64,000 nucleotides of DNA from Psammoneis japonica (taxonomy: Eukaryota): positions 1-64,000 of the forward strand of contig QPGO01000247.1 in NCBI GenBank assembly GCA_008632985.1, written 5' to 3'. Numbering within the stretch: position 1 is the stretch's first letter; each line of letters starts with the position of its first letter. Positions 30,427 to 62,899 of this stretch are shown piece by piece. The position numbers and the translations under genes are program-made. The notes under the pieces were generated by a model that saw nothing but the letters and a program-made list of their open reading frames with translations, made no database searches and was not told where the DNA came from.

Positions 30427-30511
30427 TGTACAGCTCTAAATCGTGAAGATCCTGTGTCCTGTGTACATAGGCTATTGGTACTATGCATGGGATTGTCTCT
30501 GAGATCCCTGG

Positions 30512-30773
30512 CGCTACATTTTTCAGATCACTTGTCCGTCGATTTTTTTAATTAGGGGACCTCGATGAAAAATTGAAATATTTCAATCGTAGCCCGTGGT
30601 ATCTTTTCTACGAAGGCCGGATGGGTCGAGATCAGCTGAGACAGCACCATCATCGTGCGCATCCGCCTCCGTAGAAAAGATACCACGGGCTACGATTGAA
30701 ATATTTCAATTTTTCATCGAGGTCCCTTAANAATTAAAAAAATCGACGGACAAGTGAACTGAAAAATGTAGCG
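30512..30773. repeat. Long inverted repeat (fold-back), ~112-bp arms, ~36-bp spacer
   Basis: 30512-30623 is the reverse complement of 30660-30773 with few mismatches; one N at 30731. Confidence 0.93.
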
Positions 30774-31212
30774 GAGCCCAAACAGCGTTGGCGCCATTTT
30801 TAAATAATGACATCCAGTAATTAGGAATCAATAAAAATTTTATTAAAACATAAGATTACTAATGTCTATTTTGACTTACTATTGTATTTAGAGAGTGAGC
30901 GTTGGCTGGAGTAGAACGAAACGGAAGAAGTAGCGATTACACAAAAATAAATAATAGTGTGCAAAATTTGAGGTAGAACTTTAAAGTTATTCGTAACTAC
31001 CTACATGTTAATTTCATATCACCTTAATGTACGAAGATATGATATCCTAACTATTTTTTGATGTACTGTACTGGGCATTTTTTTACCTGGTGTGGGCAAA
31101 GCTTTTTGATTAACTCGACTCGAGCGAAGCGAGAGTCAGCACGCCAAAGTAACCCGGATTTGAAAATAGACACAAAACCGCTCTCACACTTGCGTGAAGC
31201 ACCCATGTCACC

Positions 31213-34200: not shown

Positions 34201-35773
34201 AAAAATGTGTTGAAGTTGGTTCGTCGATTGGTGATTCAAGCCACCATTGAGTTTGATGCAGATGGCTGGCATGGCATGACGAGATTCCTTGCCGACCATC
34301 GTGGCATTACTTCCATGGAGGACACACTTGACCACTTCTACTTCAACCAAGAATTTTGGCACCAGCGAGTCCAGACACACCCCCCCACCACAAAGAAAGG
34401 AGCTGACAACATTCGTGCTGTCCGGGACATGGTGCAATCTAATCCTGTCCTGAAAGAGTGCTGGAGTTCCAACCTGGAACAATGCTTCGACCGGTTGGAA
34501 GAAATGCACCAGAAAGGTCAACTCGAGGAATCTCGAGATGTGGCAATGCATCAGTGGGACGGCAAGGACAAGTGTGGGTTGAATCTTTGGCTGCATCGAC
34601 GGGGATCAAATCGGTCGGAGAATTTGCATCAGAAGATGCGGGTGGCGTTTGGACCCCATGGCGTTGGTGCAAAGGTGGGGCACTTCTTGCTTCTCCTTGT
34701 CACGTGTTGATGCAATGTCAATGCTGGGGTGCGACGCAGTGGTTTCCATGACTTTGGCATGCCGCATCATGACATTGTTGATCGAGTGCAACTTCGTGTG
34801 ACAAAGTTGTTTGCATGCGATCCATTTCCCCATCACACCAACCAGTTGTTGTTTGAGCCAGCAAAGGATTTTGTTGCGGTTGGTGTGGGGCCATTAAATT
34901 GTGATGCCAAGTTTGTTGAGCACCAAGACTCACCGGATCCCAAGCTCACAGGTGACTTGAAGTTTCTTGCTGGTGAGTGGCACCGTGCATTTCTTGACAA
35001 TGTCGCTCTTGCAAATCTCACAGGAACGTTGCTCGGTCGCACTGGAACACATGAAACTGAGAGGCCCCCTGTTGCACATTAGCCATCCCAATGAAAAGCG
35101 AACACACAATGATTTTCTAAAGGATCACCCAAAACCCACGTGGAAAACGTGGGTTGATTTGGCGAGCTTGTTCAAAATGAAAGCAGACTGTGTCATGATT
35201 TTTCCCAAGCTCCCTTCCATGCTCAAAAGCTGCTGCAACAAGTGGAAAGTCACACAGGAGTTGGTGATGCTCAAGGATTCTATTGGAGTGGACTGCTGTG
35301 GACTGTCAAAACAATTTGCTCGGCCAAGTCGGGAAGAACAGAACAAAAATCCGGCTGCTGTTTTTCAGAAAAATTCCAGCAAGCCCACCTTGGAGACAGC
35401 AGCAAACGTGTTGGAGCAGACCATCACAGAGGCTGCATTTGACAATGATGGTGCCATTTCCACCAACCCAATGCCAGTGGCACCATTGGTTGCTCCCACT
35501 CAAGCCACCTGCATTGTCAGCGCCGACAAGGATGGACGCGGGGCAGACCGACGACGCTGCAGCGCCGCTCCTTTTGGATGCCCCAACCTTGCCAAGGACT
35601 GTTCATGGCGGGGATGGCAACATTGCTCATTGGTCAAACGCAAGAGTGTTCCAGTGAATGTGCCTGACTCAGAAGGGGAACGGAAAAGGTTGAAACGTGA
35701 GTGCGACAAAAAGCGGTTGTCAGAGAGAATGGCAGAACTCAGAAAGAAGAAGGGAGCAGCAAGCAACAAGTGA
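31213..35773 (+). pseudogene. Inactivated DUF6729-like putative transposase containing a DnaQ/WRN-type 3'-5' exonuclease domain; introns 32443-32517 and probably 34973-35045
   Basis: CxxC...H.R..C zinc motif, SSDHSFKFAK, exonuclease motifs CGIDSE / NVSFD / CAALD, DRFH, RGSNRSENLHQKM; in-frame TGA at 34708; GT donors with ctcac branch points. Confidence 0.7.
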
Positions 35774-40214: not shown

Positions 40215-42663
40215 AACCCAATGGGGGAGGAGTCACCACCGGAGGAAAAGACAGGGCTTGTCATTCGCGGTCGCAAAGCATTTTCTTTCCACGGATCTTG
40301 CCTGATTACATCTGCCAGTCCCCCCACTTGGCTTCTGGCCCTGAGGTGCTCCGAATGGCCTCGTGTTGTCTTGTGTTGCGGTGATGATCCACCATCCCCG
40401 TTGACCAGAGTTCTAAAACTAGTGACGTCGTGTTCATCTCTGGAGACCCTGGATTTTTGGAAAGGATCTCACGGTTGGAATGCAAATCTCCGATGTGCTT
40501 GGTTCCGGTCGGACAGTTTTCAAGACGTAGCTTGAAGGGACTGCACCACTTGTCTCATGCCACCTTCACCCATGCGGGAGTTGGAGGTGTTGCGACATTT
40601 CACACGTCCTTTTTGAGCATTGGTGCATCGCTCCCGGACTCGACTCGAGGGTTAGACCGAACCATCGGCCACATTGTCGACTGCAAGTTGGAGGGACTCC
40701 CGACTTCCCCGGATCCCTCGGGTTTGGTCTATGAGGAGAACGACCGGTTGAGTCCTCAGAACACTGGACGACCCGTCTTGTGCCAATCGCATCGTTCATC
40801 AACGGGGTGGGTCCTGCGGAAATTGAGCGGGGATGATCTCCTTGCCGCGTGGGATTTTCCTCTTCGATTTCGGACCCAGGATCTGTTGGATTTGACATCT
40901 GGTGACAGCTTGAGATTGCCAGTGCCTCTCAATCTTCTCACCACTGTCACGGACCATTTTATTGCACTGCGCTCAAAGGGCATGTCCCACGCCTCACTTC
41001 CGGTCCCTGGGCCCACATCAAGCATGGTCTTTGCCCCGGCAACTGCCACATGGTTGCCTGGTTTGGGGCAACACCTGTCGCATGACTGGGCAGATCTGAC
41101 TCTCATTGCGGCCAAGGCGGCGAAAGGGGATTCCGCCCTCCCGCCATTTCGGCTGTGGGACAAGCGTGTCACCCTCTTGTTCCCAATGTTTGGACCGGTG
41201 CTTCCAGCTCTTTGGGTGCCAGCCCTGCGGTGGTGGCGTCGGCAGCTCACGCACTTGTTCTTGGCACATTTGCGGAGGTGTCATGGCCCTGGATGGGCAC
41301 TTCGCCCAGCAAACTGGCGCCTCCAGTTTGGGGACTCATTGTTGAGTCATCGGGGGGGGCCATGTCGAGACCCACCGCTCCCTCCCTTGTTGTTGGACGG
41401 CAACCTCGGCGCGGATGTTCTCACTCAAACCCTGGCATGTTCGTGGTGGAACTGGGGCCAGGGGTCTTCCCTTTTCTTTTGGCGCTGGCCCTCGTCCGAA
41501 CAACGTCGGGCCGCTCGGGATGGGCTCCCCATCTTCGTACGAGGAACCCTCCCCAGGAATCGCCAGCGGCAATGCATCCGGGGCTCAACCAGCGAAGTTC
41601 AGCGGATGGCAACCAAAATTCAGAAGGTCCGGGACCATGGGTGCATCAAGGTTGGTCCAGTGACAAGTCTTGCCGACCATTTCTGGGCACCTGAGGTGGT
41701 GTCTCTGATCCCAGGTCCCGACGGGAGGATGGAGGAGGTCGTGGAAGACATCAGGATGGTGTGCAACGGCACCTCGTCTGTGCTCAATGACGCCCTCTGG
41801 GCCCCTTCCTTTTTCCTTCCTGCTGCGGCATCGGTGTTGGGGTGCATGACCGACGCAACCTTTTCCATTGATTTGGACCTTGGGGACATGTTCCCAAACT
41901 TTTTCATGGACCCTCGAATTCGCCCATACGCCGGAATTGACCTGTTGCTGTTGCGCACTCATCTCCCCCGTCCGGTGTCTAATGAACCTCCAATCGGCGT
42001 GGAGCGTTGGAACCGTCTCTTTATGGGGATGAAACCTGGCCCTTGCAACGTGGTGCGGTCCCATCACTGGGCGGACGAGGTGGCTCGGGGAGACCCCAGC
42101 TGCCCGGGAAACCCAATGGGGTTTGACAAAGTGTTGCTCAACCTGCCAGGGGATCCTGACTGCAAGGTCCAGGACCCTCATGTCATCAAGTGGAACTCAA
42201 CCTTGGGGATCATTGCCGGAGACATTAAGACCTTTGTTGATGACTTGAGAGGCATGGGTGCCAGTGAAGAACAAGCCTGGCAGGTGGGCCATCAAATGGC
42301 GTCCAGGCTCCAGTGCTTCGGCCTCCAGAATGCTCCTCGAAAGGTCCACCCCCCATCGCAGTGAGAGACGGGTGCCTGGGCGGGGGCAATTTTTCGCGTG
42401 CTTGGTGCAGAAGTCATGCAATCACTCTCACAGGCCAAGTGGGACAAGGCCAAGGGCATGATCGAGACTCTTTTGAGTCACTTTGACGGGATGGACGAGC
42501 TCGCCACCCCTGACTTCGACTTCAAGGATCTCGAGAGGAAACGGGGATTTCTGGTTCATGCAGCCATGACTTGCCCTTTCCCAACCCCCTTTCTTAAAGG
42601 GATTCACCTGACTTTGGACAGTTGGCATCCGAACCGCAAGGCAGATGGATGGGCCATGTCGGG

Positions 42664-42940
42664 TGACAGGATTTGAACAGGATTTAGGTGCGCGCGAAGC
42701 ATCGCGCGCTGTTTAGTTTACCGCGCACAGTTTTGTGTGCTTTAGTTCCGCGCGTTCACGCGCGATGTAGTTTGCTTTCGAGCCACAAGGCTCACAAGAA
42801 CAACAACAGTAGCCCGATTGTGCCGACTCACACGTCTTTCGGCTCCTGTGACGGTCTCTGAGCGGAGACTCATCTGCTGTTTAGACAGCAGCAAGGAGTT
42901 GTTGTTTGAATTCTTGCCATTTGCCTTCATTTTTCTGTCA
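42664..42940 (+). repeat. 5' LTR
   Basis: Matches 49494-49770 with 10 mismatches, all transitions. Confidence 0.97.
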
Positions 42941-43880
42941 GATTAACAGTCTTGCTCATTGTCAACCCATTGAGCAACCGCCATCGTCGTCGTTGATTTA
43001 CCAACGATGCCATTTTTAATTCTGCGTGGACCTCCGTACACATTCTACATACATCGGCAAGTCTACGCGCATTCAATGCCAGGGCATCGGCAGGAAGTTA
43101 ACGTCACCGTCAAGTCTCCTTACCGCTGGATGTCTGGATTGATCATGCCACCTTTGATCACTGAAGACATGCATTCAACGGTCATGTCCAAGTCTGTCCT
43201 TGATCCTCATCCCTTGATGCACCTGTTCATCGGTTGACGGTCAAGAACCCTGCACATTCAAGGATCTTCGTCTCTGACGACATGTGCACACACACATGTC
43301 TTCACGGCCAAGAACCTGTGCCCACTCTTCGGACTGCGGTTTTGCTGCCACTCTACAAGCACACCGAGTCCATTGCACCTGATCTGCCCCGGACTGCTGG
43401 TGCTCTACAGTTCTGCTGGGTCCACGAGGACAACTGTGAGAGCAAGCAGCCGTGATCACAGCCTGCGTTGGGGCGAGGGTGCTTTCCCGCGTTTGTTCGT
43501 TCGTCCACAGCGCCCAACGCCTACGTCAACTGGCCAGCCTGATCGGGAAATCCAACCGACATAAAATGAGAACGGTTCGGGGGTCTTGTCCACCTCTGGT
43601 CAGCTTGCCTGCAGGGGTTTACAACCCGCTACTCCGCTCGTAAGCAACCCAAAGCGCCACCAGCTGCGGGTTCGGACGTGCCGGCACAACTCTACGGACC
43701 GGACAGGAAGTTTAGCACTCAACAACGAACGGGATAACAAAGCCCGGCGACTTCTGATTTTAAGACAGTTCAAGATTTCAAGTCAAGTCCATTTCAAGTC
43801 AAGTCTGTTCTCACCCAAGTTTCGAGTCTACCTTCGCTTCCCAACCAGAATTGATTGTCCTGACACCATTTTTGTCTGCC

Positions 43881-46800
43881 ATGGTTCTCACTCGTCAGCA
43901 ACAAACCGATGGTTTCGAGCACGTGGTTGGAACCGTGCTTGCCCAAGGTGCTGGGAGTCCTCTTCGTTTGGCTTTGGCCCAAGACGGCACGGACTCACAT
44001 CAGGAACTGTTCACGTTCATGCCATCCCAAATCGACTCGCTTGAGCACGACAACGGCACTAATGTGATCCCTTTGCCCCGTGGTTATAAGAACATGTTAG
44101 CAGCACCAGTCAGTCTGTACATTGTTAAAGCACACAAAGGTCTTGACGTTGCCAACGACTCCTCTTTGTTCACGCATGACGAGTTCCTTGCCTGCCGCCT
44201 CAGCCCCGACTGCATGTCTTCTGTGTCCATCGGCAGCTCACCCCTTGCACCTCCACATGTCACCAACCCGACCAAGGCACGCGACCCGGTGCGGGACTTC
44301 AAGCGAGGCATCAAGCGTGATCCCACCGCTTTCACGGCTCTCAAATCCGACAAGCAGTGGCACACTTGGCACACCTCACTTGTGGCACAAGCCCGTGCCC
44401 AAGACGTCGAGTGCATTCTAGACTCGTCGTACAAACCGACCAGCCCCGAAGACAAACTGCTCTTTGCTGAACAGCAAAAGCACATGTTCGCCGTCTTCGA
44501 ATGCATCCTTCTCACCGACAAGGGCAAGGCTCTCATTCGCGAAAATGTGGGGTCTTCTGATGCACAGACCGTCTGCCGCTCCTTGTCTGAGTGCGCGCTT
44601 GCCTCCACCCGCGCATCTGTCGAGTCCTCCACCCTGCTCACGTACCTCACCACCGCGCGTCTTGGTGATGGCACTTGGAAAGGTCCGACCCACGGGTTCA
44701 TCCTTCATTGGCAAGATCAGTTGCGCAAGTGCGAGGCACTCATCCCGGCCAATGACCACTTCTCTGAAGGACAGAAGCGCGTCATGCTCGAGAATGCCGT
44801 GCACCCTGTCGAGGAACTCCGTGCTGTCAAGAGCCAAGCTGATCAGCATCGTACGCAGAGTGGCAAGAGCCTCACATGTGATCAATGCTGTGGCTTGCTC
44901 CTCTCCGCGGCAGCTCAGTGCGACAGCACGTTTCAACCCAAGACGACACCTCGAGCTCCCCGACGCGCCACACACGCACCCGATGTCTGCTCCGAGGAAC
45001 CGTCCGACGATGTGTTCTACGACATTGACAGCGACGTTGACGTCCTTCAAGCCAATGCTGCCTGCACCCGCGGTCCCAGCCTCACCGGTGTCCAATGGAG
45101 ACGTCTCCCTCCCGACCACCAACGGCTCTGGGATTCGTTGCCCGATTCCTCCAAGGCGATCATCCTTGAGCATTCTCGTCCACCTCCCCGCAACCCGCGA
45201 GCCAGCAACTGCCATGAGTCTGTTACGGCCAACCTTCACGACCAACGCCTTGGGAGTGACGGTGATGTCCACTTCTCCAACATGACTCCTGCTGACTCTG
45301 GTGACTCCGCCCCACATGTGGACGCCACTTCGGACAATCCCATCCTGGCGCACCTCACCAAGCGCAAGCCACTGCCACCCGGTGATCTGCAACGTCTGTT
45401 GTCTCCTAACCAAGCCCCCAATGCCAGTCGACCGGGGCCATCCGCCGCTTCCTCTACCCCGCCAGCTTCTGCAGATAACATGGAACTTAACGGCCGCACT
45501 TGCCGCCGCGTTGACAACCACAATGTCATTTGCTCTGCCTCTGCTCATCGATCCACACGCACTGGCGCTCCAGTCGATCGTGGGGCCAACGGCGGCATTG
45601 CTGGCGACGACGTTCGCGTCATTGCACGCACCTCTCGCCAAGTCGACGTTCAGGGCATTGACGATCATCAATTGGTGGACATCCCCATTGTCACCGCTGG
45701 TGCCGTTGTTGAGACCCAGCGTGGTCCTGTCATCGCCATCCTCCATCAGTGCGCATGCACGGGAAAGGGCAAGACCATCCATTCCTGCGGCCAGCTCGAA
45801 TGGTGCAAACAGGATGTCAACGATCGCTCTGTCAAGGTGCCCAACGGCTTGCAACGTGTTGCCACTCCTGATGGCTATGTCATCCCCATTGACATCAAGG
45901 CTGGCCTGCCTTATGTTGCCATGCGACCTTACACTGACGCCGAATGGGACACCCTGCCCCATGTCATCCTCACCGGTGATGACACATGGGACCCTTCCGT
46001 CCTCGATCACTCTGTCACTGACGACGACCAGTGGCACGACGCGATCTCTGACCCACAGGACGATCCCACTGCCAACCTGTTTGACGAATGCGGCAACTGC
46101 CGTCATCGTGTCGTTGTCAATGAGACCATCTTGTCCGCTTCCTTGTCTGCCGATCACGCGTCCGCCCTCGATGATCACCTCATTCCGAACGACGACGTGT
46201 TCTACGAGTGTCATCTGCATGCGATTGCCCCCCAGGGCGATGACGTTCCACCTCCGGAGCGCACTGTACAGCCCAAGGACCCCCCCTTCGAGTCTCTTCG
46301 GCCTTGCTTTGGCTTCCTGCCTGCCGATACGGTCCGCCGTGCTTTTGACTGCACCACGCAGTGCGCCCGCATGCCCGCCGGCACACACCTTCGCAAGGCC
46401 TACAAATCACCCAACCCCGCCCTTAATGTGCACCGCCGCAACGAGCCCATCGCCACTGACACCGTTTGTGCCAACACCCCGGCCGTCGACTCTGGTTGCA
46501 CCAGCGCCCAACTGTTTGTTGGCACCGAGTCTACCGTCACTGACGTCTACGGCACTAAGACGGACAAAGAGTTTGTCAACACACTCGAGGATCAGATCCG
46601 TGCATGTGGTGCCCCATCCAAACTCATTAGCGACCGTGCTCAAGTTGAGATCAGCAACAAAGTGCTCAGGATCCTGCGCGCCCTCTTCATCTCTAGCTGG
46701 CAAAGTGAGCCTCACCAGCAACACCAAAACTTTGCCGAGCGTCGACACCAGACCGTGAAGCGCATGGCGAACACTGTCATGGATCGTTTTGGTTCGCCCG

Positions 46801-49546
46801 CCCACACATGGCTGCTGGCGCTCATGTGCGTGTGCTTCACACTCAACCACCAGCGTCCCCACGTCTCCACTGGCGCATGCCCCTCGAGACTCTCACTGGC
46901 TCCACCCCGGACATCAGCCCATTGCTTCGCTTTCACTGGTGGGAACCCGTGTACTTCCACCTCGATGACTCTGATTGGCCGTCTGAATCCCGTGAGTTGC
47001 GTGGACGCTTCGTTGGCATTGCTGAGCACGTCGGCCACCAGATGACCTTCAAGATTCTATCTGACGAGACTCAGAAGATCCTCTGCCGGTCCAACGTCCG
47101 CTCCGCTGCCCCCGATCCTGCCGTTCGAAACCTGCGTCTTGATCCTCCTGATGGGGAGCCACCTGAACCCATCATCAATCTCGCCATGACGACAACCCCG
47201 TCGACTCTCCTGATGGGGAGATCAGGACACCCAAGATGCCAGTTTTCGATCCGCAAGACATCATTGGACGTACCTTCCTCATGCAGCCACAAGAGGACGG
47301 ACAACGCCACAGAGCTCGCATCGTCAAGGCCGTCGAAGACCACGAATGGAAAGTGAACGGCAATCCCGAGCTCACTAAGTTCGTCTGCTCTGTCAACAAT
47401 GACGAATACGAGGAAGTCCTTGCCCACAATGACATCATGAATCACATTGAGCAAGAAGACGAAGACACCACTGTTTGGAAATTTCGATGCATCGTGTCAC
47501 ACGAAGGACCTCTGAAGCCTCACGACCCAACCTGGAAAGGCTCCAGCTACAACATCATGCTTGAATGGGAAAGTGGGGAGATCACGTCCGAGCCTCTTGC
47601 CATCATCGCCAAGGACGACCCCGTCACCTGTGCCATCTATGCACGAGAGAACGGACTCCTCGACACGGATGGCTGGAAGCGGTTCCGCACCATCGCGAGG
47701 CGCCAAAAGAAGCATTTCGCATGGCCAACCAAGCCAAGCTTCACTCCTTCCGCACTGCACCCCGCCACAAGCATGGATGCGAAGTTCCCCGCAACTACAA
47801 ACACGCCATGTCACTAGACGAACGCAACGGCAACCGCAAGTGGGGAGACGCAACCAATCTCGAGATGGACCAACTCGACGAATACGAAGTCTTCCATGAC
47901 TGCGGGCCCTTCAAGTCTTCCACTCCTCCTGCGGGACACAAGAAGATCCGAGTGCACCTGGTGCACGATGTGAAACACGACGGTCGCCACAAGGCACGAC
48001 TCGTAGCCGACGGGCACCTCACGGACGTACCTATCGACAGTGTCTACTCCGGAGCAGTCTCCCTCCGTGGCCTTCGGCTGATGATTTTCCTGGCCGAACT
48101 CAACGAGTTGGAGACATGGGCCACCGACATTGGCAATGCCACCTTGAAGCCACCACCAAGGAGAAGCTTTACATTGTAGCTGGACCCGAGTTCGGCAAAC
48201 TCGAAGGACACATCCTTGTCATCCACAAGGCACTGCATGGACTGCGCAGCTCCGGTCTCCGCTGGCACGAGCGCTTCGCCGACTGCCTGCGAGCTGAAGG
48301 CTTCTTCCCCTGCCGCGCCGAACCCGACATTTGGATGCGCAGGAACGGCGACCACTGTGAATGCATTGCCGTTTATGTGGATGACCTCGCCATTGCCATG
48401 AAGGACCCTCAATCTTTCGTCGACACTCTCACGGAAAAGCACAAGTTCAAGCTCAAGGGTGCGGGACCCATTGAGTTCCATCTGGGTTGCGACTTTTCCC
48501 GGGAACCCGACGGAACCTTGTGCCTGTCTCCGCGCAAGTACATCGAGCGCATGGTCGACAGCCATGCCCGACTGTTTGGGGAGAAACCTGCCACCAACGC
48601 CCTGTCACCTCTAGAGAAGGGTGACCACCCCGAACTGGACACTTCCGAACTGCTGGGACCCGATGGCATTCACAAGTTCCAGTCTCTTGTTGGTTCACTC
48701 CAATGGGCAGTGTCTCTTGGTCGAATTGACATTGCCACGGCCGTCATGTCACTCTCTAGCTTCCGAGCTGCGCCCCGTCAAGGCCACTTGGATCGTGCCA
48801 AACGCGTCTGTGGGCACCTCTCCAAGATGCGACACGGTGCTCTCCGCGTTCGTACGGAAGAGCCCGACCATTCGGATCTCCCTGCTCCGGCCTATGAATG
48901 GATGCATTCCGTGTGTGGTGAAGCAGAAGAGATGATCCCGAAGGACGCTCCACCGCCCCTTGGCAAGTTCGTCACTGCCACCCACTACGTCGATGCAAAC
49001 TTGCACCATTGCATGCTCACCGGACGCTCTGTCATGGGAATGCTCCACTTCCTCAACAAATTCCCGGCTGATTGGTTCTCTAAGAAACAAGCCACCGTGG
49101 AGACTGCGACCTACGGGTCTGAATTTGTTGCCGCAAGGACTTGTGTTGAGCAGATTGTCGACCTGCGCATCACCCTGCGCCACCTTGGCGTCCCGATCCG
49201 CAACGTTAGTTACATGTTCGGTGACAACAAGTCGGTTGTAGACAGTGCCACCATCCCGCACTCCAAGTTACACAAGCGACACACCGCACTGTCGTTCCAC
49301 CGTGTGCGTGAGGCAATTGCCTCTGGTTGCCTTGAGTTCCACTTCATCGAAGGCTCCCGCAACCCTGCTGACATTCTCAGCAAGCATTGGGGTTGCTCCC
49401 AAATCTGGGACCTTCTCCGCCCCCTCATGTTCTGGAACTTCATTCCATCCGAAGTCGAATCTGTTTCTGTGGCTCCTCAAGCAAACTGGGGAGTGACAGG
49501 ATTTGAACAGGATTTGGGTGCGCGCGAAGCATCGCGCGCTGTTTAG
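43881..49546 (+). pseudogene. Copia gag-pol with frameshifts near 46850, 47190, 47710 and 48140
   Basis: DFKRGIKRD gag; VDRGANGG protease; ISDRAQVE...SEPHQQHQNFAERR integrase; KARLVADGH, YVDD RT; DNKSVV, NPADILSK RNase H. Confidence 0.93.
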
Positions 49547-49770
49547 TTTACCATGCACAGTTTTGTGTGCTTTAGTTCCGCGCGTTCACGCGCGATGCAG
49601 TTTGCTTTCGAGCCACAAGGCTCACAAGAATAACAACAGTAGCCCGATTGTGCCAACTTACACGTCTTTCGGCTCCTGCAACGGTCTCTGAGCGGAGACT
49701 CATCTGCTGTTTAGACAGCAGTAAGGAGTTGTTGTTTGAATTCTTGCCATTTGCCTTCATTTTTCTGTCA
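49494..49770 (+). repeat. 3' LTR
   Basis: Preceded by the PPT and followed by the TSD. Confidence 0.97.
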
Positions 49771-50929
49771 TCGGGTGAGGAACACGCATCGTGGATTCAT
49801 CATGAGGCGGACAAGTTTGGCATCGACCCATGTGAGCTCGCTGATGCTCTTCGACACGGCAAACACCCCGAGTCGGTTCGAGCTGTGCCTCGTTTGTTGG
49901 GGGACTTGAAAGCACTGCAACGAATCCTGGAGCCCGACAAACCAACGGCCAGGGTCATCCGATCGTCTAAAGTGGCAGTGGTTCTGTGCGGATTTGCCGA
50001 TGCATCTGGAAAAGGTCTAGGATCCTCGGTTCAGACCAAGGACGGCGCAATTGTGTTTCGGATTGGCGTCTGGGGCAGTGACGACCAGTCCAATTCTTCG
50101 AACTGGAAGGAGCTGTCAAACACGATCGACTCCATTCATGAGCTGGCTGAGGCCGGCGAGCTTGATGGGGCCACTCTCTACTTTTTTATGGACAACTCCG
50201 TTTCGGAAATCGCCGTGCATGAGGGGACCTCATCTAACCCGAGGCTCCTGGAACAGGTGATTCGGTTAAGAGCGCTCGAGGCCTGGTGCGGCTTCACACT
50301 GCACCTCACACATGTCTCGGGAAAACGGATGATCGCCCAGGGCACAGATGGGGCATCACGTGGTGTCCTGACCAAAGGGGTCATGAACAGGGCTAGAATG
50401 CTTTCTTTTGTTCCCCTGCATCTTGCCGCGACGGAGCGAGCCCCCCCTTTTTGAGTGGATACACTCCTGGGCGGGGTCGCCTCCAGCAGAGCTGTTGTCT
50501 CCGCTGGACTGGTTCCAGAAGGGGCATGACATCTCAGGTTGGGACCACCCTCCTTTCGAAGCAGTCGAGATGCCCTTGTTTTGGTCTGGAACTTGGATTT
50601 GGGCACCCCCCCCAGCTGCGGCCAGAGCGGCCCTCGAGGAACTGCGGATTGCACGTCTCAAGCACCAGGAATCGTTTCACATTTTCGTGTGTCCTCGACT
50701 CATGACACCCGAGTGGCAAAAGCAATTGCGTGAAGCTGCGGACCTTGTGTTTTTGGTGCCGGCCGGAGCCGGGCCGTTTTGGCCCGTCGAGATGTTTGAA
50801 CCCCTTCTCATCGGCCTTGTTTTTCCGTTTGTCTCTCACAGCCCTTGGCAGCTCCGAGGAACCCCAAAGATGCACTCAATGGACCGGACACTGCGAAGAG
50901 TGTGGGAGGATGCTAAAGTGGACGCGAGG

Positions 50930-52409: not shown

Positions 52410-53318
52410 GTCACGTTCCTCGACTTGTCTCGACTGTTCATTCCTCGAGATTTTTCCTTTCAGGTGGCCACTGCCCGGGAGTTCTCATCGGGGGGGATTT
52501 GAGCTCAGCTTTGCTGGTGCGACCACGGGAGTCTCCTGGTGAAGTCTAGAAGGTTTCCTCCTACGATCCACTCTCAACGACGCGCTCCTGCGGAGTCACA
52601 ACAATTGCGTCTGGCATTGCCTTCGACTCCGGTTCGAGACTCACCTCTTGCGGGGCACCGACGTCGCGCAATGCCAAAGGCACCCCGCACTGGGCTCAGC
52701 CGGAAGCGCCCGGAGCAGTTCCCAGTGGGTTCCATTCATGAGCCCTCGAGCTAGACTCGAGACCCTGCGGAGGGCATGGGTGTCACCCAACCCCCCTTGT
52801 GCGGAGCAGAGTGTCACCGAAAGCTCTGCTCTGTGAGTCTCCTGAGTGTTCTAACACCAAGTTGCTTCTCAGTGGTTCTTGGCTCGGCAGTCTAAGTCTG
52901 GCCCAGATTGGAGTCGGTGCCGCACTGTTTCAAATCCTCCTCACACCCAAGTTTAGATGGAGACGTGCCGTGCGATGCAAGACTCCCCAACTGACTAGAC
53001 CTCAGACTTGTGCCTCTTCCAGAAGCGGGCACTTCTGGACCAAGATGGCCGGTCATGGTGACCGGTCAAATCTGTCGGCCATTTGCTTTTCACTTTTCCA
53101 TCTTTGTTGAGACAGGAACCCTGATCAATGTGACTGGATCATTCCAAAGCACTGGAAAAGCTTCTTTTTGCAACCCACCCACCACTCCCTGGATTTGAGC
53201 TCAGCTTTGCTGGTGCGACCACGGGAATCTCCTGGCAAAGTCCAGAAGGTTTCCTCCTGCGATCTGCTCTCGACAACGCGCTCCTGCGGAGTCACAACAA
53301 CTGCGTCTGGCGTTGCCT

Positions 53319-53742
53319 TCGAGGGCTCGTGAATGGAACCTGCCAGGAACTGCTCCGGGCGCTTCCGGCTGAGCGCAGCGCGGGGTGCCTTCGGCATTGC
53401 GTGACGTTGGCACCCCGCAAGAGGCAAGTCTCGAACCGGAATCAAAGGCAATGCCAGACGCCATTGTTGTGACTCCGCAGGAGCGCGTCGTCAAGAGCAG
53501 ATCGCAGGAGGAAACCTTCCAGACTTTGCCAGGAGAGACTCCCGTGGTCGCACCAGTGAAGCTGAGCTCAAATCCAGGGAGTGGTGGGTGGGTTGCAAAA
53601 AGAAGCTTTTCCAGTGCTTTGGAATGATCCAGTCACGTTGATCAGGGTTCCTGTCTCAACAAAGATGGAAAAGTGAAAAGCAAACAGCCGACAGATTTGA
53701 CCGGTCACTGTGACCGGCCATCTTGGTCCAGAAGTGCCCGCT
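53319..53742 (-). repeat. Inverted copy of the A/B terminal repeats of the YR element, forming a fold-back
   Basis: Reverse complement of ~53021-53322 plus further B1 sequence (~52623-52749). Confidence 0.9.
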
Positions 53743-55274
53743 GTAGACCGAGCCTAAGGGTGGTCGGTTGCCACTTTTTTAGCTCGAATTCGGCCGAACA
53801 GCTCGTGTTTTGCATGATTTTTCCTGAATTTCACCGTGCTTCACCGTGGTGAAAACAACAAGCCATAAGTCTGTGACGGAGGTGGTCCGTCTACCAACTC
53901 TCATTTATTTTATGTTTGTCATGTAACAAAGATTGTACACACATGAAAAGTTGGTAGACGGCAAACTACGTTTTTGAGAAACATCGATGATTGTCATCAT
54001 CGTCGTGCTTCGGTCGCGGTGCTGATGGTTCTCGTTTTCGTGCGCGATCGGGTGTGACTGTGAATAATTCTTGTATTCAAAAATAAACACTATAAAAAAC
54101 CTTATTCAAATGCAACGGTAATTTTAGGATAAACGCGGGGATGACCCCCCCTAAGACGGACGGTGGCTCAAAATTTGCTCTACAGAGCTTTCTACACAAA
54201 ACATGCCAGAAAATGTGCCGTTCCGACGATGATCGATTTCATCGGCGCATCGACCACTGTGCCTTACACCGTTCAGTGGTTGTTCAGATGCTCGCTGTTG
54301 AAGCGCACCATGGTGTTAGAACGGAGAAAATTGGCAAACATTTGATTGATTTATCCCCGAGACTGACCAAGTGCAAAATCGTCACTTTTTCGGCAGGTGC
54401 TGACATGTGTCGTTGATTGTCGTCGCATGTTCCGCTCCGTTGCGCCCTGTAAGTTATGACATGGAAACTTGTGCATGTTTTCGTTGTTGCCTTGCAATGG
54501 CATTGTCTTTCTTGTGGCACAACCATTGTTTCTGTCGTTCGTAACAAATGGCTTTGCATTTTTTGCCAGAAATGTGCTCACTCACGGATTGGGCTCTTCC
54601 TCGTTGTCACGCAGGTTCTCAGTCCATGTGATGCCTTGGTGTTGTTTGTTGGTGTCTGTGTGAGACGTGGTTTGACCACAGCTCTGAGATTCGAGGCAAA
54701 GACAGTCTGGGGTCTCATTTTTGGTTGGGCGTCGCTGTTTTGTGACATTTTTGGAGATTTTTGGACGGTTGTGTCGATTTCTTACCGCTTGGGTAGATTT
54801 GAGTGCATTGGCTGTGCTCATTTAGTGACACTGAGTCAAGGAGGTGAGCTCATGTGACAACATTGTCAACTGTTGGCATTCAAACTCACTCAATGGGGCT
54901 TGCACTTCGCGCAGGATTTCATCAGTTCGCGACAGTGTGGGTGCCTCTAGACTTGGGATGCAACAACACACTGTGTAGGATGGAGAGTTCAGGACTCTCT
55001 TGAGGTTGTGCAATGCAACAGAGGATGACAAGAAGTGGTTTTGGGACAATGAGACATGCCAAAGACACGAATTGTGAGAAGATCTCACGAGGGATTGGAG
55101 ATGACATTGTGACCCAACGGTCATGTGTGTCACTCCGATTGCTGTCGCTAGAAGACTCAATGGACATTTCTTCCGGAAGAAGAGATCCATGACCGGAAGC
55201 GTCATCCGTGAATCAGACTCGGTTGTTGACTCGTGACTCTCCCTCTCAACCGAAAAGAGAAGGAGAACTGTCAG

Positions 55275-58200
55275 TCACCAGCCCATGAGGGCTTTGCGAC
55301 CAGTGCGGAAGAGATCAACAGTCAATCCTTCAGCAAACTGGTCAGCAAGCTGTGCAGCTGAGCTCACAGGCTCAATTTTGATCTCCAAAGCCTCAACTTT
55401 AGTGTGAAGCCAATGGTGGGGAATGCCGATGTGCTTGGTTCGTGGGGACAATTTTGGCACACGGGCGAGTTGGAGGCAGGCAGCATTGTCTTCATACACA
55501 ACGGATGCTGGGAGGTTAGCAGAGTCAATGGGAGAATCCTCAGTTCCGTCGTTGGCGTGTCGGAAAGCCTTCGAATGTGTCGAAATATCGGTCTGTCTGT
55601 CCGGCTGTCCGAAAACGAGCGCGTTGATTTCCTTCACGATCTCGCGAAGGGGGATGAGATCACGCATCGCTTGGGAGAGGGCGACATGCTCGGCTTCCAT
55701 GGTGGAGAGTGCGACGAGGGTCTGCAACTTGGACACCCAGACAATCGGACATCCTGCACAACAAATGACACATCCCGCACGTGACTGAACAGACGTGGGA
55801 TCTTGTCCATCTTCAACACTGAAGAGTCCCGCGAAATCAGCATCAACATGGCAGTCGAGTCGTTGATCGGCGGTTGGAGTTGGGATGAGTCCTTTGTCGG
55901 CCGCATCCTTCAGGTGACGAAGAATGCGCTTGATGGCCACAGCGTGGGAGGCCTTGGGTGCGCAGGAGAACCGTGCGACTTGATGGGTCACGCAAGCAAT
56001 GTCCGGGCGGCTGTTGGACGCTAGACACATCAGCATGCCGACCACGGAACGGCAGTCATGAGGCTCATCGAACGGTGGCCCGTCGGCATCGCTGCCAGCT
56101 GGAGCAGGCAAGGCAGGAGTGGGTGCGCCGTTGCACTCAGTCATCTGTGCGGTGCGGAGAACTTTCTCAATTAGGCCGGGTTGGGTCAGGAGGAATTGGC
56201 TGTCTTCGAGCTTTTGAATCTTGATGCCTGGAAAGTTGCCGACTTCGCCTTCATCACGTAGATCAAAGACATGGCGTTGCTCATCATCAGAAACACCCAA
56301 CTTGGCAATCTCTGCTTCCAAGGCTTGGGCCGATGCGCCGGCGAACACGGTGTCATCAACATGTGCCACACATGACACACCCTTTTTGAAATAAAGACAA
56401 GGGTCAATGGCGGATTGAATCCATCCTCTTTCGAGCAATCCGTCCCTCAGCTTTTCATGGAAGCACTTGGGAGACTGGCGTAGGCCGCACAGGCCTTTCA
56501 ACAATTTTGGCACCAGATCGGCGCCCGATTTTGGCTGGAAACCCTTGGGAGGCTCTACATGGACCTTCTCCTTGATGTCAGCTTGGCAGAAGGCTGCAGT
56601 GCAGTCCACTTGACGTGCAGTCCAACCTTCCTTGAGCACCGTGGTGAGGAGAAGGCGCATGGACGACCATTGCACTGCCGGCGCGCAGGTCTCGAAAAAA
56701 TCGATCCCGTGTTTCTGCAAATCGCCGCGAACGCAATGTCGTGCCTTGCACTTCAAGGGCGCACCATCCGGGAGTCGTTTGAGTTTGAAAGCCCATGTGC
56801 TGGGTGGCACATTCACATCTGCCGTTCTTGGCACCATTTCCCATGCACGTCGGTGGAGCAGCGCGTTGGCTTCAATTTTCACAGCCTTGACCCACTCTTC
56901 GGATTCATCACTGCGCATGGCCTCGTGTGAAGAAGGCATGTCGGGATCTTTTTGCTTTTTAGCAGTTGCATGTACCCTGGGATCGTTGACATTGTAGGTT
57001 TCCGTCTCNNNNNNNNNNNNNNNNNNNNNNNNNNNNNNNNNNNNNNNNNNNNNNNNNNNNNNNNNNNNNNNNNNNNNNNNNNNNNNNNNNNNNNNNNNNN
57101 NNNNNNNNNNNNNNNNNNNNNNNNNNNNNNNNNNNNNNNNNNNNNNNNNNNNNNNNNNNNNNNNNNNNNNNNNNNNNNNNNNNNNNNNNNNNNNNNNNNN
57201 NNNNNNNNNNNNNNNNNNNNNNNNNNNNNNNNNNNNNNNNNNNNNNNNNNNNNNNNNNNNNNNNNNNNNNNNNNNNNNNNNNNNNNNNNNNNNNNNNNNN
57301 NNNNNNNNNNNNNNNNNNNNNNNNNNNNNNNNNNNNNNNNNNNNNNNNNNNNNNNNNNNNNNNNNNNNNNNNNNNNNNNNNNNNNNNNNNNNNNNNNNNN
57401 NNNNNNNNNNNNNNNNNNNNNNNNNNNNNNNNNNNNNNNNNNNNNNNNNNNNNNNNNNNNNNNNNNNNNNNNNNNNNNNNNNNNNNNNNNNNNNNNNNNN
57501 NNNNNNNNNNNNNNNNNNNNNNNNNNNNNNNNNNNNNNNNNNNNNNNNNNNNNNNNNNNNNNNNNNNNNNNNNNNNNNNNNNNNNNNNNNNNNNNNNNNN
57601 NNNNNNNNNNNNNNNNNNNNNNNNNNNNNNNNNNNNNNNNNNNNNNNNNNNNNNNNNNNNNNNNNNNNNNNNNNNNNNNNNNNNNNNNNNNNNNNNNNNN
57701 NNNNNNNNNNNNNNNNNNNNNNNNNNNNNNNNNNNNNNNNNNNNNNNNNNNNNNNNNNNNNNNNNNNNNNNNNNNNNNNNNNNNNNNNNNNNNNNNNNNN
57801 NNNNNNNNNNNNNNNNNNNNNNNNNNNNNNNNNNNNNNNNNNNNNNNNNNNNNNNNNNNNNNNNNNNNNNNNNNNNNNNNNNNNNNNNNNNNTGCCCCCC
57901 TTCCAACGGATGGATGCGTGGAGAAGCATCGCTCTCGCCATGTTGGAGACGGAGCGAATGCCGCGTTCTGTGACGCCGTTCTGATGGTGGGCATTGGTTC
58001 CGCAAAAACGTAGACGTTGTTCGTGCTGTCGCATGTGTTGCACAAAAGCATTGGCCTTGAAAGCGCCAGAATCGGCAAGAAATTCTTGGATGATGACGCC
58101 GTGGTCCATCGCGTGCTTTTCAAACGCTTGCTTCGCTCGCACCGTTTCCACAGCAGAGAAACCAAGTTGGTGTTCAACATGCAGGTAACCGGAGGCATGA

Positions 58201-61200
58201 TCCACAAAAATGCAGCCTCCTTTGCATTGCTGGGACGAGGCCTTCCCGCAGGAGTCGCAGGTTCGGCCGAGGAGACGGGATTCGAAGTGATCCACGCTGA
58301 CGGCTTGGCCTGGGCGTAGATGCTCGGTGCATGGCACGCCATCGTCTTGACGACGAGCTCAGAGCCGTCCTCGTTGTGGAAAACCCAGGAGACGGGTCCG
58401 ATGCCGGCGATGGTTGAGCCATTTGCTAGACCCCCAAGCTTCAATGGGCCACCAGGGATCGTCAGAGGTCGGACAAAGTCGTTTTCATTGCAAGCAATGG
58501 CCAAGGATGCGCCAGCATCGCATGTGATGGTGTGGCGCTCATGTGCCAGGCTCAGCAAAGCTTGCGGGTTGGCGGCGAGTTGTGCTAAAGAACGTTGGCC
58601 TGTCAATGCCTGCACAGAGGCATGAGTGGGACAGGCTTCGGTTCCATCAGTAGCTGCCTGGAGAAGCTTCACAGGGTCTTGCCATGGAGTGGTGTCCACG
58701 AAACCAAACTTGGTGGACAGCTCGTCGAAACGAAAATAGTCCGGAGAGAGCTCCTCAACCGCATCAAAGCAGTGGCTCGGCTCGGTCGGGAGCGGGCCGA
58801 GGGCTTCCTCTGAATCACAGGTGTCGAAGCAGGACTCGGGGTCTTCTAGAGCTGGAGGGACACAGCGGCCTGGGGAAGAGCATGCGTCGTTCTCCCAGAG
58901 CTGCGTGAATTTCTTGCTCAGACAATGGTCCGGATCGAGCTCCACAAATTCGGTGAGCACTTGTTGCGCCTTGATCTTGTTGTGTTCCACCAAACTGCCC
59001 GGATCTGACACTGTCTCATCGTCCAGTTCTTCAATGATCGAGTGGACCTGAGAGCCAGCTTTGGAGAAGCGAGAGGGGACATTGGAGAATGGATGCGTGG
59101 GAAGCTGACCGTTGAAAACAGACGCCCAGACCATGACAGCTCCAGTCAGCACCATCCAGGTAGAGGGGAAACCGTGAATGGTTGGGATGAATGCCTTGCG
59201 GCGTGTACGACGAGGTAAGACAGGAATCGGCGCACAGCAAATGTGCAGTGCCATTTCCCAGAACATGGCAAACAGCCAGAAAACTCGGAGCTTCAAGAAG
59301 TTCCAGAAGAGCTCAAGACGAGAGCTCGGCGTTGCCTCCTCGACGCCACAATCAACATCTTGGGGTTCGGGATCGTAAAATTCGAAACCGCGACACTGGG
59401 TGCTTGGAGGTAAGTGCTCGTAGCTGTCTTCGAAAGGTGGGATGCTTGCCCCGGAAACGAGATCATCTGACACGTCGTCAGACAGACCTTCCACGTGAGT
59501 TGCGATCGTGTCATAAAACACGTCCGGATTTTGAATCTCATGCACAGCACAGGCCGGAAATGGCTCGACAGCTGACGGCAGGGAGTCAAAAGAGGAGTGA
59601 GCGTCGGAGTGCTCGGAGCAATCGTCAGCGTCTTCGGGGTCAACCGTTTCAACCAAGATGGGAGCGGGTTTGGCCACGGCAGTCTCCCTCTCGGCCGATG
59701 GAGCAGGAGTGAACGTGACGGTCGTAGTCACTGGAGTCGAACTCAAAGAGTCGTCCACAGGTGCACACCACATGCCGCAACAAACCAGCTTGTTAGGGTC
59801 AGAGGGTTCATCTGTAGGCGGAGACGTCGTCTGCTCGGGAGGACCAAAAGGAATGCCCGAAGAGGGGTCCGACACAGCAGATAAATTTGCCGCAGCGGTG
59901 GTTTCGGTTTTGACAGACGGTTTCCCGGTGTGTTGAGCGGAGGAGTGGCCTTGACACATGCCCTTCTTGCCCGTTTCCTTGTTCACACACTTGTCGCACC
60001 AGTGCCAGGTCGTGCCTTTCTCGTCAGTGACAGTGGCACCTTTGTGAACGAAACGCCAGGCCGGCTTGGGTGGTTTCTTGGAAGGGTTGGTCTTCCGGAC
60101 ATCCGGAGGGTCATCCTTGGACTTGTCCGCCGTGCCCTTTTTGTCCTTCTTGCATTGCTCCTTGCAGGTGGGACACGTGCGTTTGGTGCACCCAACCTTG
60201 CCACAGCCGTGGCAATGCTTTTCCGAGTTGTCCTTGGCGAGGTTGGATTCCGGGAGCTTGGCTGCTGAGGCAGGCCAATCTTCATCGCTAATGAGTTCGC
60301 CATGGGTCTTGGTGATCCAGCCAATGAGGCCAACAGGTCCAAGATCCGCACAGTCGGCATCCTTGGGGACTTCTGCCGGGTCACGCAAGCAACATTTGCG
60401 CTCCAAGCGCTTGACGGAGTCGAGCTTGGCAAAAACTTGACGATTGAAAAACTCGGAGGATGTCTTTGATGCCTTAGATAAAATGGTGGACCCAGTTTCA
60501 ACTGGCAACGCATGGTCCGTCTGCATGATCTTGAGCGGGCGCAGAGCTTCGGTTGCAAGCTCGGTGCAGCCCTCGCCAGGGCAGGTGTCCAGAGTTAAGT
60601 CGTTCAACTTTTCCTTGGCGGCCTTGACGTCAACCAGAGCACTGGCATTGCAGGCATCCAGAGCCATCATAAATGAGACAGACCCCGCAAGATCCTTGTA
60701 GTTCTTCAAGTGATTAAACTTGGCTTCAATCTTTTCACGGAAGGTTTCGGTGATGCGCGACTTGACGATGAGTTGTGATGAGCCGATGTCATCGATTTCA
60801 TGCTGATCGTAGCCTTCGTCACCTGTGGCCGCCACACGGGTCTCACATTCCTTCTCAAGGTCTTTGACAGTGAAGGCATGAAGATGATCAAAAAGGCACA
60901 TGACCTTGCCGTCGACTTTCTTGAGATGGTAGAAAGTTTCTTGTCCGTGCGACTCGATTAAGTCCTGAATGGTCTTGACGAAGTGGTCTTTGTCCAGTTC
61001 AGTGCTGGAACCGTTGGATGGCTCAATCTGGCCGTTGAACTTGGATGTGGTTGCCGAAGCGAGTTGATCTCGGAGAGATCGCTCGATAGAGTCGACAGCT
61101 TTCGGATGGCGACGTTGCGAGGCAAAATGGCAGGTGCGGGTGTCGGTCTGCTCGCACTTGTTGTTCAGAGCCGAACCACCCAGATGCACTCCATGAGAGT

Positions 61201-61309
61201 GGTGGATGCCGCCGCGAAGCGGCGTGGGGATCGCAGGAGGGTTGGTCGAGGTTTGCATCTTGGCGAAGGCCTCAGCAAACATCTTGACGGTGTCAGGATC
61301 CATGGACAT
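55275..61309 (-). pseudogene. Copia gag-pol; frame change and probable deletion between protease and integrase (~58330)
   Basis: Zn knuckle CHGCGKVG; CDAGAS protease; VSVDHF, FVDHAS, ADSGAF, HHQNGVTER integrase; WAFKLKR, HVDD RT; HVDADFAG, YEDN, QLADQF RNase H. Confidence 0.93.
57009..57892. other. Assembly gap (884 N)
   Basis: Run of N. Confidence 1.
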
Positions 61310-62537
61310 GGTTGTGGATGATTCGACACAGAGGATCGATTAGCAGGTGGGGATTGCGACATAGATGATCGCCGTTGGATTGCGACATAGAAGATCGCCG
61401 TTGGATGGGATGTCGTCTGTAACGAGACGAACGAGTGGCAGCAACTCCGTTACGAGTTGATGCCGGTGCGTGGATTGGGGTCGTAACCACTTGGGATGCA
61501 ACAATGCACTGTGTAGGATGGAGAGTTCAGGACTCTCTTGAGGTTGTACAATGCAACAGAGGATGACAAGAAGTGGTTTTGGGACAATGAGATGCGCCAA
61601 AGATGCGAACTGTGAGAAGATCTCACGAGGGATTGGAGATGACATTGTGACCCAACGGTCGTGTGTGTCACTCCGATTGCCATCGCCAGAAGACTCAACG
61701 GACATTTCTTCCGGAAGAAGAGATCCATGACCGGAAGCGTCATCCGTGAATCAGACTCGGTTGTTGACTCGTGACTTCTGGCAATGGCATGAGACAAACA
61801 CCGTCACAGCGACAAGCACGTGCACACAGGAGACACAAAAGAATGTGTGCAAAGGTTAATTGGCAAGTCGGTGTTGCAATTTTGCTCATAATTTGCTTCT
61901 GTGACTCAACAATTGCAGTTTTTGTTTTCGCCTCTAGCAAGATCTCCCACTTTAAGACGCAGCGCGGATCGAAAACACAGGCTGATCAGTGGGCTTGGTG
62001 GGGATTCAGCAGCATTCTTTGGTGCACCTCTCGGTGCTCAGTGGCACTGTCGTGTCTCTTCCTTGGCGTTAATTGCCGGTGAGAATATTTCTATTTTTTG
62101 CATTGATGTTTCCAATTTTGTTGCCTCTCTTGAATCCTGTGTCACGGATGTTCTCACTTCTTGCACCCTCCCTTCTCTTTTTGGCCTCCCATCATGCGGC
62201 AACTGCTGGTGGACGACTGCCAGCTCAATGACCTGGCGTGATAGTTCATAGGTCGTGGTTCGATGTGTGGCTAGCGCGATCGAGCCGAGAGAAAAGGATC
62301 GACACATCCGATTGTGAATGATGGAATGAGGAGCTGTGTGGCAGTTGCGCAACTACAGGGCTTTGTCATGGCAACTCGAAACATCCCAATGCCACAAAAG
62401 ATTCATTCTACAGTGCTAGATAGCCTTGGGAGTCGTCGTTCATGCCGATAACAGCAATGAGACGATGCGCTTGCGGCATGTCCGGAAAAACGGCACCGTA
62501 ACAAACGGCCTACATACGACCCTGGTACATCGTCCGT

Positions 62538-62628
62538 CTTACTTCCGCGAGAGTCTATGAGGAGACCTTCGGGTGCGTGCGAGCGCGCGCGCGAAGAACG
62601 GTCGACGCATAGACTCACGATGGAGAGT
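62538..62628. repeat. TpA-retaining copy of the 91-bp repeat at 36178-36268
   Basis: Direct alignment. Confidence 0.92.
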
Positions 62629-62899
62629 GACTGTACTGTGTAGTCGTGTAAACAAACTTCCGGAAAAATTGAACTTTCGCTCACAGGTAACTGTACTGTA
62701 CAGTACGCACATGTCACAAAGCCAACTGCCAACTGGCCATCATCTTTTCCACAACATGCTCATGGCGAACGAACGGCATACAGTACCACAGCGCAGCTAC
62801 TCTCTACTCTAGTAGAGAGCGGCTACCGGTAGTTTTCGCATAAGTCACCTCACTTGGCAAATTGAAAAGTTTTTGGAAAGAGCGTCTCGTTTGGCTATC

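Follow-up and report, generated by a model that had tools for sequence, protein, structure and literature searches.

TpA dinucleotides give way to CpA or TpG after insertion in a Ty1/copia retrotransposon and in other repeats of a 64-kb DNA stretch

The first 64,000 nucleotides of Psammoneis japonica contig QPGO01000247.1 (the window) contain repeats that show this genome changing the TA dinucleotides (TpA) of resident DNA to CA or TG at a rate far above that of other changes. The pair of long terminal repeats (LTRs) of a Ty1/copia retrotransposon at 42664..49770 serves as a small, clean internal clock and shows that the change takes place after integration. TA is replaced by CA or TG on both strands equally and as the fastest change, and this is seen between sister copies of any repeat type. 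It is probable that two context-specific transition processes, acting on resident double-stranded DNA, made the once-identical LTRs diverge. According to this account the LTRs would have been identical at integration and mutated thereafter in place. The dominant process would convert TpA to CpA or TpG by one transition per site, on either strand, chosen independently; a second process would be ordinary CpG decay to TpG or CpA. The element, which lies on the plus strand, has the following parts, where rho is the occurrence of a dinucleotide relative to that expected from base composition.

42659..42663, plus strand: left target site duplication, TCGGG; the same five bases adjoin both LTRs
42664..42940, plus strand: 5′ LTR, 277 bp, with TG..CA ends and 7 TA and 21 CG dinucleotides
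42941..49493, plus strand: internal region of the Ty1/copia element, rho(TA) 0.26, rho(CG) 0.91
43764..47045, plus strand: longest open frame, 1093 aa, gag to integrase part; aligned by tblastn with upstream parts of related loci
47900..49546, plus strand: reverse transcriptase (RT) and downstream (RNase H-side) frame, 548 aa, RVT_2 E = 8.6e-16
49479..49493, plus strand: purine-rich run, polypurine-tract-like, directly 5′ of the 3′ LTR, recognized by reading
49494..49770, plus strand: 3′ LTR, 277 bp, with TG..CA ends and 8 TA dinucleotides, 96.4% identical to the 5′ LTR
49771..49775, plus strand: right target site duplication, TCGGG

When aligned, the LTRs differ at exactly 10 of 277 positions without gaps, and all ten differences are transitions. 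They lie in the left LTR at 42686, 42723, 42724, 42768, 42801, 42825, 42829, 42849, 42850 and 42892, and in the right LTR 6830 positions further on. At five of them (42686, 42768, 42801, 42829 and 42892) one LTR carries TA and the other CA or TG; the left LTR carries the TA at two of these sites and the right LTR at three, and on the plus strand four of the five are C/T and one is A/G. At 42723, 42724 and 42825 the left LTR has CpG where the right has CA or TG, while positions 42849-50 form a doublet that reads TG on the left and CA on the right. An earlier note on this DNA, made by reading the letters, had listed ten transitions in 277 positions, comprising five of TA type, three at CpG and one doublet, and the alignment agrees with it in every detail. 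Both LTRs stand within one shared 5-bp target duplication, which indicates one insertion and places the LTR differences after reverse transcription, as the note had argued. The observation is thus confirmed and its reading as a post-insertion change at the DNA level is supported.

The differences are confined to a small part of the LTR. A pyrimidine followed by C or T occupies 133 of the 275 classifiable sites and none of these has changed (the probability that all ten fall elsewhere is 0.0013), whereas seven of the ten changed bases lie within the 22 bases of 11 inferred original TA dinucleotides (binomial P = 2e-6). All ten fall at TA- or CG-type sites and the other 213 LTR positions show no difference. 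The raw LTR divergence of 3.6% is therefore wholly at hypermutable sites and overstates the age of the insertion, which bears out the warning in the earlier note that LTR dating would give too old a date. In the proposed account the dominant process would explain seven of the ten differing bases, namely the five TA-type sites and the doublet, the latter being one original TA converted differently in each LTR; CpG decay would explain the other three, all in the 3′ LTR. The pair has five shared TAs, five TA singles and one doublet. A model built on these counts puts the chance of conversion at about one third for each TA in each LTR, the original number of TAs at about 11 and the expected number of doublets at 0.6, compared with 0.06 by the CpG route. 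About a third of the original TAs would thus have been converted in each LTR. Base composition predicts 16.4 TAs, and the LTR at insertion, with an estimated 11 or so, would have had a rho of about 0.7. Since this original content was roughly normal, the transposing lineage seems to be much less affected than inserted copies, and the process would act preferentially on silenced or inserted copies.

A repeat search of 41.5-51 kb returned a single direct repeat pair, 42664-42940 and 49494-49770, and frames in the 6.55 kb between its members encode a Ty1/copia reverse transcriptase (Pfam RVT_2), so that "LTR pair" is the correct name. The RVT_2 match in 47900-49546 scores 58.7 bits against a cut-off of 31.6, and a weak N-terminal piece lies in the neighbouring frame 47565-48179. 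Homologues of the 548-aa RT frame number 2458, and the best reach 66-70% identity; of the best 120, only those from Cylindrotheca, a diatom genus, bear names. Pfam assigned no family to the 43764-47045 frame at E <= 0.01; the upstream frames align by tblastn to upstream parts of related loci (5729 window positions covered), and an integrase-like D..D..E stretch in the upstream translation was noticed by eye only. Other family copies join a similar purine-rich run to the LTR start in contigs of sequencing run X1. No tRNA-complementary primer site was identified 3′ of 42940 by reading only. The gag-pol reading is broken into five overlapping frames with switches near 46850, 47176, 47713 and 48139. 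At all four, 24-39% of the X1 family depth has one letter more than the window copy, indicating that this copy is degraded, or mis-assembled by single letters.

Contigs of run X1 were aligned with the element at 80% likeness to obtain the state of the family. The summed word depth over the element is 46,000-424,000 compared with about 150 in two flank bins, or 300 to 2800 times the flank depth, which is a depth and not a copy number. The family is very abundant and high-copy. Variation among X1 copies consists mostly of transitions (439 places, vs 85 transversion places), and the family states cited below come from 38 listed places of the 528 that vary. There is no further copy of the family within the 64-kb window, and an exact stretch of 24 bases from the LTR 3′ end had no match in metagenome_contigs or viral_contigs. 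The element is one degraded copy of a high-copy Ty1/copia LTR retrotransposon that resembles the CoDi group (Copia-like elements from diatoms; Maumus et al. 2009, PMC2806351). As far as the available text of that paper describes them, CoDi elements are likewise of Ty1/copia type, their LTRs are short, and they have terminal inverted dinucleotides and duplicate 5 bp of the target; the best named RT homologues of the element are diatom proteins; the comparison is one of likeness and not a tree-based placement in a CoDi group. The same available text mentions no dinucleotide-specific decay. The host is eukaryotic, and the closest named relatives for the element are diatoms.

The pattern of the LTR pair recurs in other repeats. 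Ten repeat pairs were classified in the window (2 LTR, 2 tandem, 2 inverted and 4 dispersed). Between them they show 33 CA/TG doublets, 15 TA singles, 42 CG singles, 17 other transitions and 22 transversions, 14 of the transversions sitting in one gapped palindrome; 11 TAs and 99 CGs are shared. A TG/CA doublet between sister copies means two hits within one dinucleotide. From the ratio of CG singles to shared CG, a CpG origin predicts 0.06-1.1 doublets per pair, about 3 in total vs the 33 seen, and near-saturation of TA conversion accounts for the excess. The pair 52495-52749 / 53319-53575 has 8 doublets, 2 TA singles and no shared TA. In a simple two-copy model with small counts, the loss of TA outpaces change at other sites by a factor of about 100 or more. 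Old repeats would end at a rho(TA) of about 0.04-0.07 and a CA/TG of about 1.8 because TA is lost far faster than CG and other sites.

One of these pairs belongs to a second, unrelated Ty1/copia element.

54951..61776, minus strand: second Ty1/copia element, with 288-bp LTRs at 54951-55238 and 61489-61776

Its RVT_2 match (E = 1e-33, 55278-57008, minus strand) is to an RT 23% identical to that of the first element, and a gap of 884 Ns (57009-57892) lies inside it. Its LTRs differ by 14 transitions, made up of four doublets (8 bases), 2 TA singles, 3 CpG singles and 1 other. Over the two LTR pairs, therefore, only 1 of 24 differing bases lies outside TA- or CG-type sites. The inverted repeats or palindromes at 20866-22043, 30512-30773 and 53024-53742 have 86-88% identity. 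The arms 20866-21264 / 21640-22043 differ by 10 doublets, the left arm (reverse complement) having mostly CA, and these arms may be the ends of a DNA transposon. Dispersed copies at 37091, 52934 and 53595 carry the same doublet pattern. The tandem duplications 10986-11698 and 14847-15578 consist of 356-358-bp units that are 98.9% and 99.7% identical and stand amid nearly TA-free DNA. No CA/TG doublet separates their units. As the units lie in TA-free DNA, the duplications post-date TA loss, and the converted letters were copied by them. The loss of TA is thus heritable.

This copying bears on a technical artefact, in which a modified TpA base is misread, or long-read repeats are left unpolished, and a true TA is written as CA or TG. 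Much of the pattern would be mimicked by a modified base that reads as CA on one strand and as TG on the other. The N gaps mark the window as a scaffolded assembly, the letters lacking at the four frame switches could be assembly indels, and at 42157-42158, in the low-copy flank, the window has TG where the sole covering X1 contig has CA, an allele or a technical difference. Random miscalls would make tandem copies differ, however, and the absence of doublets between them shows that the CA and TG letters were copied as such and not misread. Were the misreading tied to one strand, dinucleotides of equal orientation should run together within a k-mer, which they do not. Over 692 bases of TA-poor flank, an X1 contig of 4371 letters departs from the window at only 4, and TA loss scales with CpG loss and with copy divergence, as expected of age. 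An artefact is accordingly improbable.

The direction of change is the second point to be settled, as the LTR pair alone fits either direction. A process like repeat-induced point mutation (RIP), or methylation-driven deamination of cytosine, at CpA (CA to TA) and CpG, would make the TA-bearing LTR the mutated one at the five sites. On this view five of the ten changes would fall in the cytosines of CpA, which occupy 44 of the 277 positions. Deamination of cytosine does occur here, with CG changed to TG or CA at three of the ten LTR differences and CA in the element at 43160, 43997 and 44024 where CG is the family majority (92-98% of the depth). At 42829, however, 146651 of 192206 in summed X1 depth (76%) read T, that is TA and not CA, so that the CA of the left LTR is derived. 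This is the family-state test that the earlier note had called for, at the one site with listed data. At the other nine LTR sites the direction is inferred from the coding part of the element, the family and the window.

The coding part was examined by aligning the RT frame with 120 homologues and scoring as conserved each column in which 70% or more had Tyr. Of 18 such columns the element retains Tyr in 5, with His in 7, Cys in 4 and Phe in 2, while it retains 269 of 323 other conserved columns (Fisher P = 9e-7). In codon terms, replacing Tyr (TAY) by His (CAY) is precisely TA to CA and replacing it by Cys (TGY) is TA to TG, so that CA to TA would have added Tyr where Tyr was lost. The corresponding figures for the second element (none of 19 Tyr columns kept, 5 being His and 3 Cys) are unreliable, as it keeps only 104 of 333 non-Tyr columns with an RT 23% identical to that of the first. 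Outgroup DNA was supplied by 49 related metagenome loci whose codons were projected on the window by tblastn, a position counting as majority-TA when 60% or more of no fewer than 15 related loci had TA. The window keeps TA at 11 of 34 such positions, while 10 have become CA, 9 TG, 3 TT and 1 AC; for the remaining 15 dinucleotides 796 of 981 positions are unchanged (P = 2e-9 for the contrast with TA). Conversely, none of the 147 positions with majority CA (66) or TG (81) is TA in the window. The homologous RT segment has a rho(TA) of 0.51-1.12 with a median of 0.72 in the 28 of the 49 loci with long matches, vs 0.24 here, which marks the shortage of TA as particular to this genome, and its GC content has a median of 48% in the same 28 loci vs 56.5% here.

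Family depth points the same way at several places. TA is the family majority where the window copy has CA or TG at 43144 (96%), 43149 (62%), 43186 (62%) and 43219 (60%). At six listed places the window copy has CA and many or most copies have TG; the T depth at the first base is at least as high as the G depth at the second in all six and higher in five, indicating that the third state is TA and not CG. At 42700-1 both LTRs have CA while 49-57% of the family depth is TG.

The composition of the window also runs against CA to TA, since TpA is depleted and not enriched. In 127 bins of 500 bp, rho(TA) has a median of 0.09. In 4-kb bins rho(TA) ranges from 0.04 to 0.42 and CA/TG from 1.27 to 1.91, and some 2-kb bins have 4-6 TA dinucleotides where CA and TG number 200-260 apiece. 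In 2001-28000 only three of the ten symmetrised dinucleotides are abnormal, TA (0.07), CG (0.29) and CA/TG (1.79), all others being 0.87-1.20; rho(CG) is 0.13-0.56 in 4-28 kb. The whole retrotransposon stands at rho(TA) 0.28 and rho(CG) 0.93. In 4-kb bins TpA/ApT is 0.04-0.46 and (CpA+TpG)/(ApC+GpT) is 1.27-2.07, which is opposite to the RIP thresholds of at least 0.89 for TpA/ApT and at most 1.03 for (CpA+TpG)/(ApC+GpT) given in the available part of PMC7884421. With outgroups, Tyr codons, family state and composition all opposed to it, a CA to TA origin is barely credible, and conversion of TA to CA or TG is the reading pursued below.

Across 63 bins of 1 kb, rho(TA) follows rho(CG) with a Spearman coefficient of 0.82, indicating that TA loss goes with age or silencing. 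Near-normal TA (rho 0.53-0.84) with CpG at or above expectation occurs only in 30501-31500 and 62501-64000, which are either the youngest DNA of the window or protected. The stretch 29796-30357 is 68% similar to 14101-14659. A 1170-aa frame at 31198-34710 has a 3′-5′ exonuclease domain (DNA_pol_A_exo1, E = 4e-10) and six homologues; it is probably part of another mobile element, as two of the six carry a Ulp1-type peptidase C48 domain. Its TA content is near normal at the start and very low further on. Stop codons reflect the loss of TA throughout the window. TAA occurs 207 times on the plus and 200 on the minus strand, TAG 170 and 158 times, and TGA 1425 and 1486 times, making TAA and TAG 7-8 times rarer than TGA. 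Long chance frames are therefore expected on both strands and the length of an open reading frame is no evidence for a gene here. One such chance frame, 44418-46406 on the minus strand, is antisense to gag-pol.

The third point is whether the changes arose in DNA or in a nucleic acid that preceded it. Editing before integration could be ADAR-like A-to-I editing of the RNA, or the work of a deaminase on single-stranded minus-strand cDNA; late editing of cDNA, after synthesis of the plus-strand strong-stop, could leave the LTRs unlike. ADAR makes A-to-G changes with a preference for a 5′ U. Some conversions, such as 42700-1, are common to both LTRs and to subfamilies, which indicates that source copies carried conversions into new insertions. 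ADAR editing would give A-to-G changes in the sense strand only, clustered and the same in both LTRs. The observed pattern is otherwise, since the strands are hit about equally both among the Tyr codons (to His 7, to Cys 4) and among the majority-TA positions (to CA 10, to TG 9). CA/(CA+TG) is 0.43-0.57 in every 2-kb bin. Neighbouring CA or TG dinucleotides share their orientation with a probability of 0.47-0.52 at every distance from 2 to 300 bp, as in control loci, whereas editing of a single strand is expected to cluster on that strand. This absence of correlation means that the hits are single, independent and on either strand. The same doublets are found in repeats not made by reverse transcription (20866-22043, 53024-53742, 37091 and 52934), and old non-coding DNA across the window is free of TA. 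Editing before integration is therefore very unlikely, and the view of the earlier note that integrated DNA was mutated, on both strands and in both LTRs, holds well.

Within integrated DNA, the base context of TA influences its conversion. In the repeat pairs purine-TA-pyrimidine is converted 15 to 1 and pyrimidine-TA-purine 15 to 13 (Fisher P = 0.007). Counted over the entire window, survival is lowest for ATAC, ATAT and GTAC, purine-TA-pyrimidine sites that have nearly disappeared, and highest for TTAA, with CTAA/TTAG also surviving well, which hints at a palindromic 4-base preference.

A fourth explanation does without any special mutation and invokes ectopic gene conversion, GC-biased gene conversion or selection against TpA. 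The family polymorphism at 42829 is compatible with ectopic conversion, but the ten LTR differences are scattered over 207 bp and form no single tract. GC-biased conversion would fit the general drift of the element from A:T to G:C relative to its relatives, but it should also turn AA, AT and TT into GC-richer forms in LTR pairs, and all but one of the 24 bases that differ in the two LTR pairs are of TA or CG type. Selection cannot drive dead, nested repeats to a rho of 0.04. These explanations are together unlikely, if slightly less so than an artefact.

Several observations nevertheless weigh against a post-insertion, TpA-specific process. So abundant a family could make its LTRs differ by gene conversion. 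The family state is directly observed at only one of the ten LTR sites. The window copy has TA where the family depth is CA or TG at 43017 (97%), 43523 (100%) and 43736 (50%); these would be founder effects of already-converted source copies, although they may be back-changes to TA. The element also shows a broader shift from A:T to G:C relative to its relatives: AT has become AC at 13 of 78 positions, CG has replaced TG at 12 of 81 and AG has replaced AA at 9 of 73, with few changes in the other direction. Part of the TA loss before insertion could thus be compositional. The estimate that TA is lost 5-15 times faster than CG comes from the same simple two-copy model and small counts. Lastly, runs X1-X4 represent one sample, perhaps the one assembled, and so give no independent confirmation of the letters, a circumstance that would also suit an artefact.

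Conversion of TA to CA or TG in resident DNA resembles several known systems in part. In RIP of fungi, repeated and mobile DNA is likewise eroded by dinucleotide-specific transition hypermutation on both strands, which imprints a strong dinucleotide signature and inflates the divergence of copies. RIP changes C:G to T:A, mainly at CpA, according to the available text of PMC2621366, and is thus the mirror image in target and direction; here TA is destroyed, CA and TG are made and the DNA becomes GC-richer. RIP is also a process of fungi, while the closest relatives of this element are in diatoms. Methylation-driven CpG decay provides a second parallel as a clock-like loss of a self-complementary dinucleotide to CA or TG in inserted copies, with independent hits in sister copies giving TG/CA doublets. 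Such decay is present here too, in correlation with TA loss, but the target of the dominant process is TpA, the change is from A:T to G:C, and it is several times faster in the same pairs. We know of no spontaneous chemistry that renders TpA hypermutable in this way.

ADAR and APOBEC3 share a neighbour preference with the process seen here, and in those systems enzymatic deamination disables retroelements. They act on RNA or single-stranded cDNA, in a strand-biased and clustered manner, and their changes are fixed before integration; the G-to-A changes of APOBEC have in addition the wrong direction. In dinoflagellates 5-hydroxymethyluracil prefers TA and TC and occurs mostly on repeats and transposable elements, as described in the available text of PMC11572971, which reports no mutational consequence of the base. 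The base could conceivably give rise to T-to-C mispairing at TpA in silenced repeats. TC is undepleted here, however (symmetrised rho for GA/TC 1.02), and nothing here marks the host as a dinoflagellate.

Two chemistries could underlie the conversion. The adenine of TpA might be deaminated in duplex DNA to hypoxanthine, which is read as G, or a modified thymine at TpA might mispair with G. Either would be placed on silenced repeats with a preference for purine-TA-pyrimidine. Toxin-derived deaminases of protists may be candidates for such an activity. A further step, possible though doubtful, is that this is a dedicated, silencing-linked genome defence and the chemical mirror of RIP, in which an enzyme acting on duplex DNA at TpA (purine-TA-pyrimidine) changes A:T to G:C in inserted elements. 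The enzyme could deaminate adenine, or could modify thymine to a product that pairs with G. Such a defence would erase Tyr codons and TAA and TAG stops and enrich repeats in GC, while active source copies and genes would stay normal in TA.

Context-specific hypermutation of repeats is known in the form of CpG decay and fungal RIP, both of which deaminate cytosine and enrich DNA in AT. No description of TA to CA/TG hypermutation of repeats was found in the full-text literature (subscription journals and supplements lay outside the search), and the phenomenon is apparently undescribed so far. In this DNA it is TpA that is hypermutable, and its conversion leaves a product richer in GC, which implies a different chemistry, on A or T. 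If the effect is biological, it suggests a DNA-modifying or deaminating activity not yet described, which would be of interest as a natural means of editing A:T to G:C in duplex DNA. The effect would also account for the long false open reading frames of this DNA, require transposon age estimates in this lineage to change, and provide a new signature that separates silenced from active DNA.

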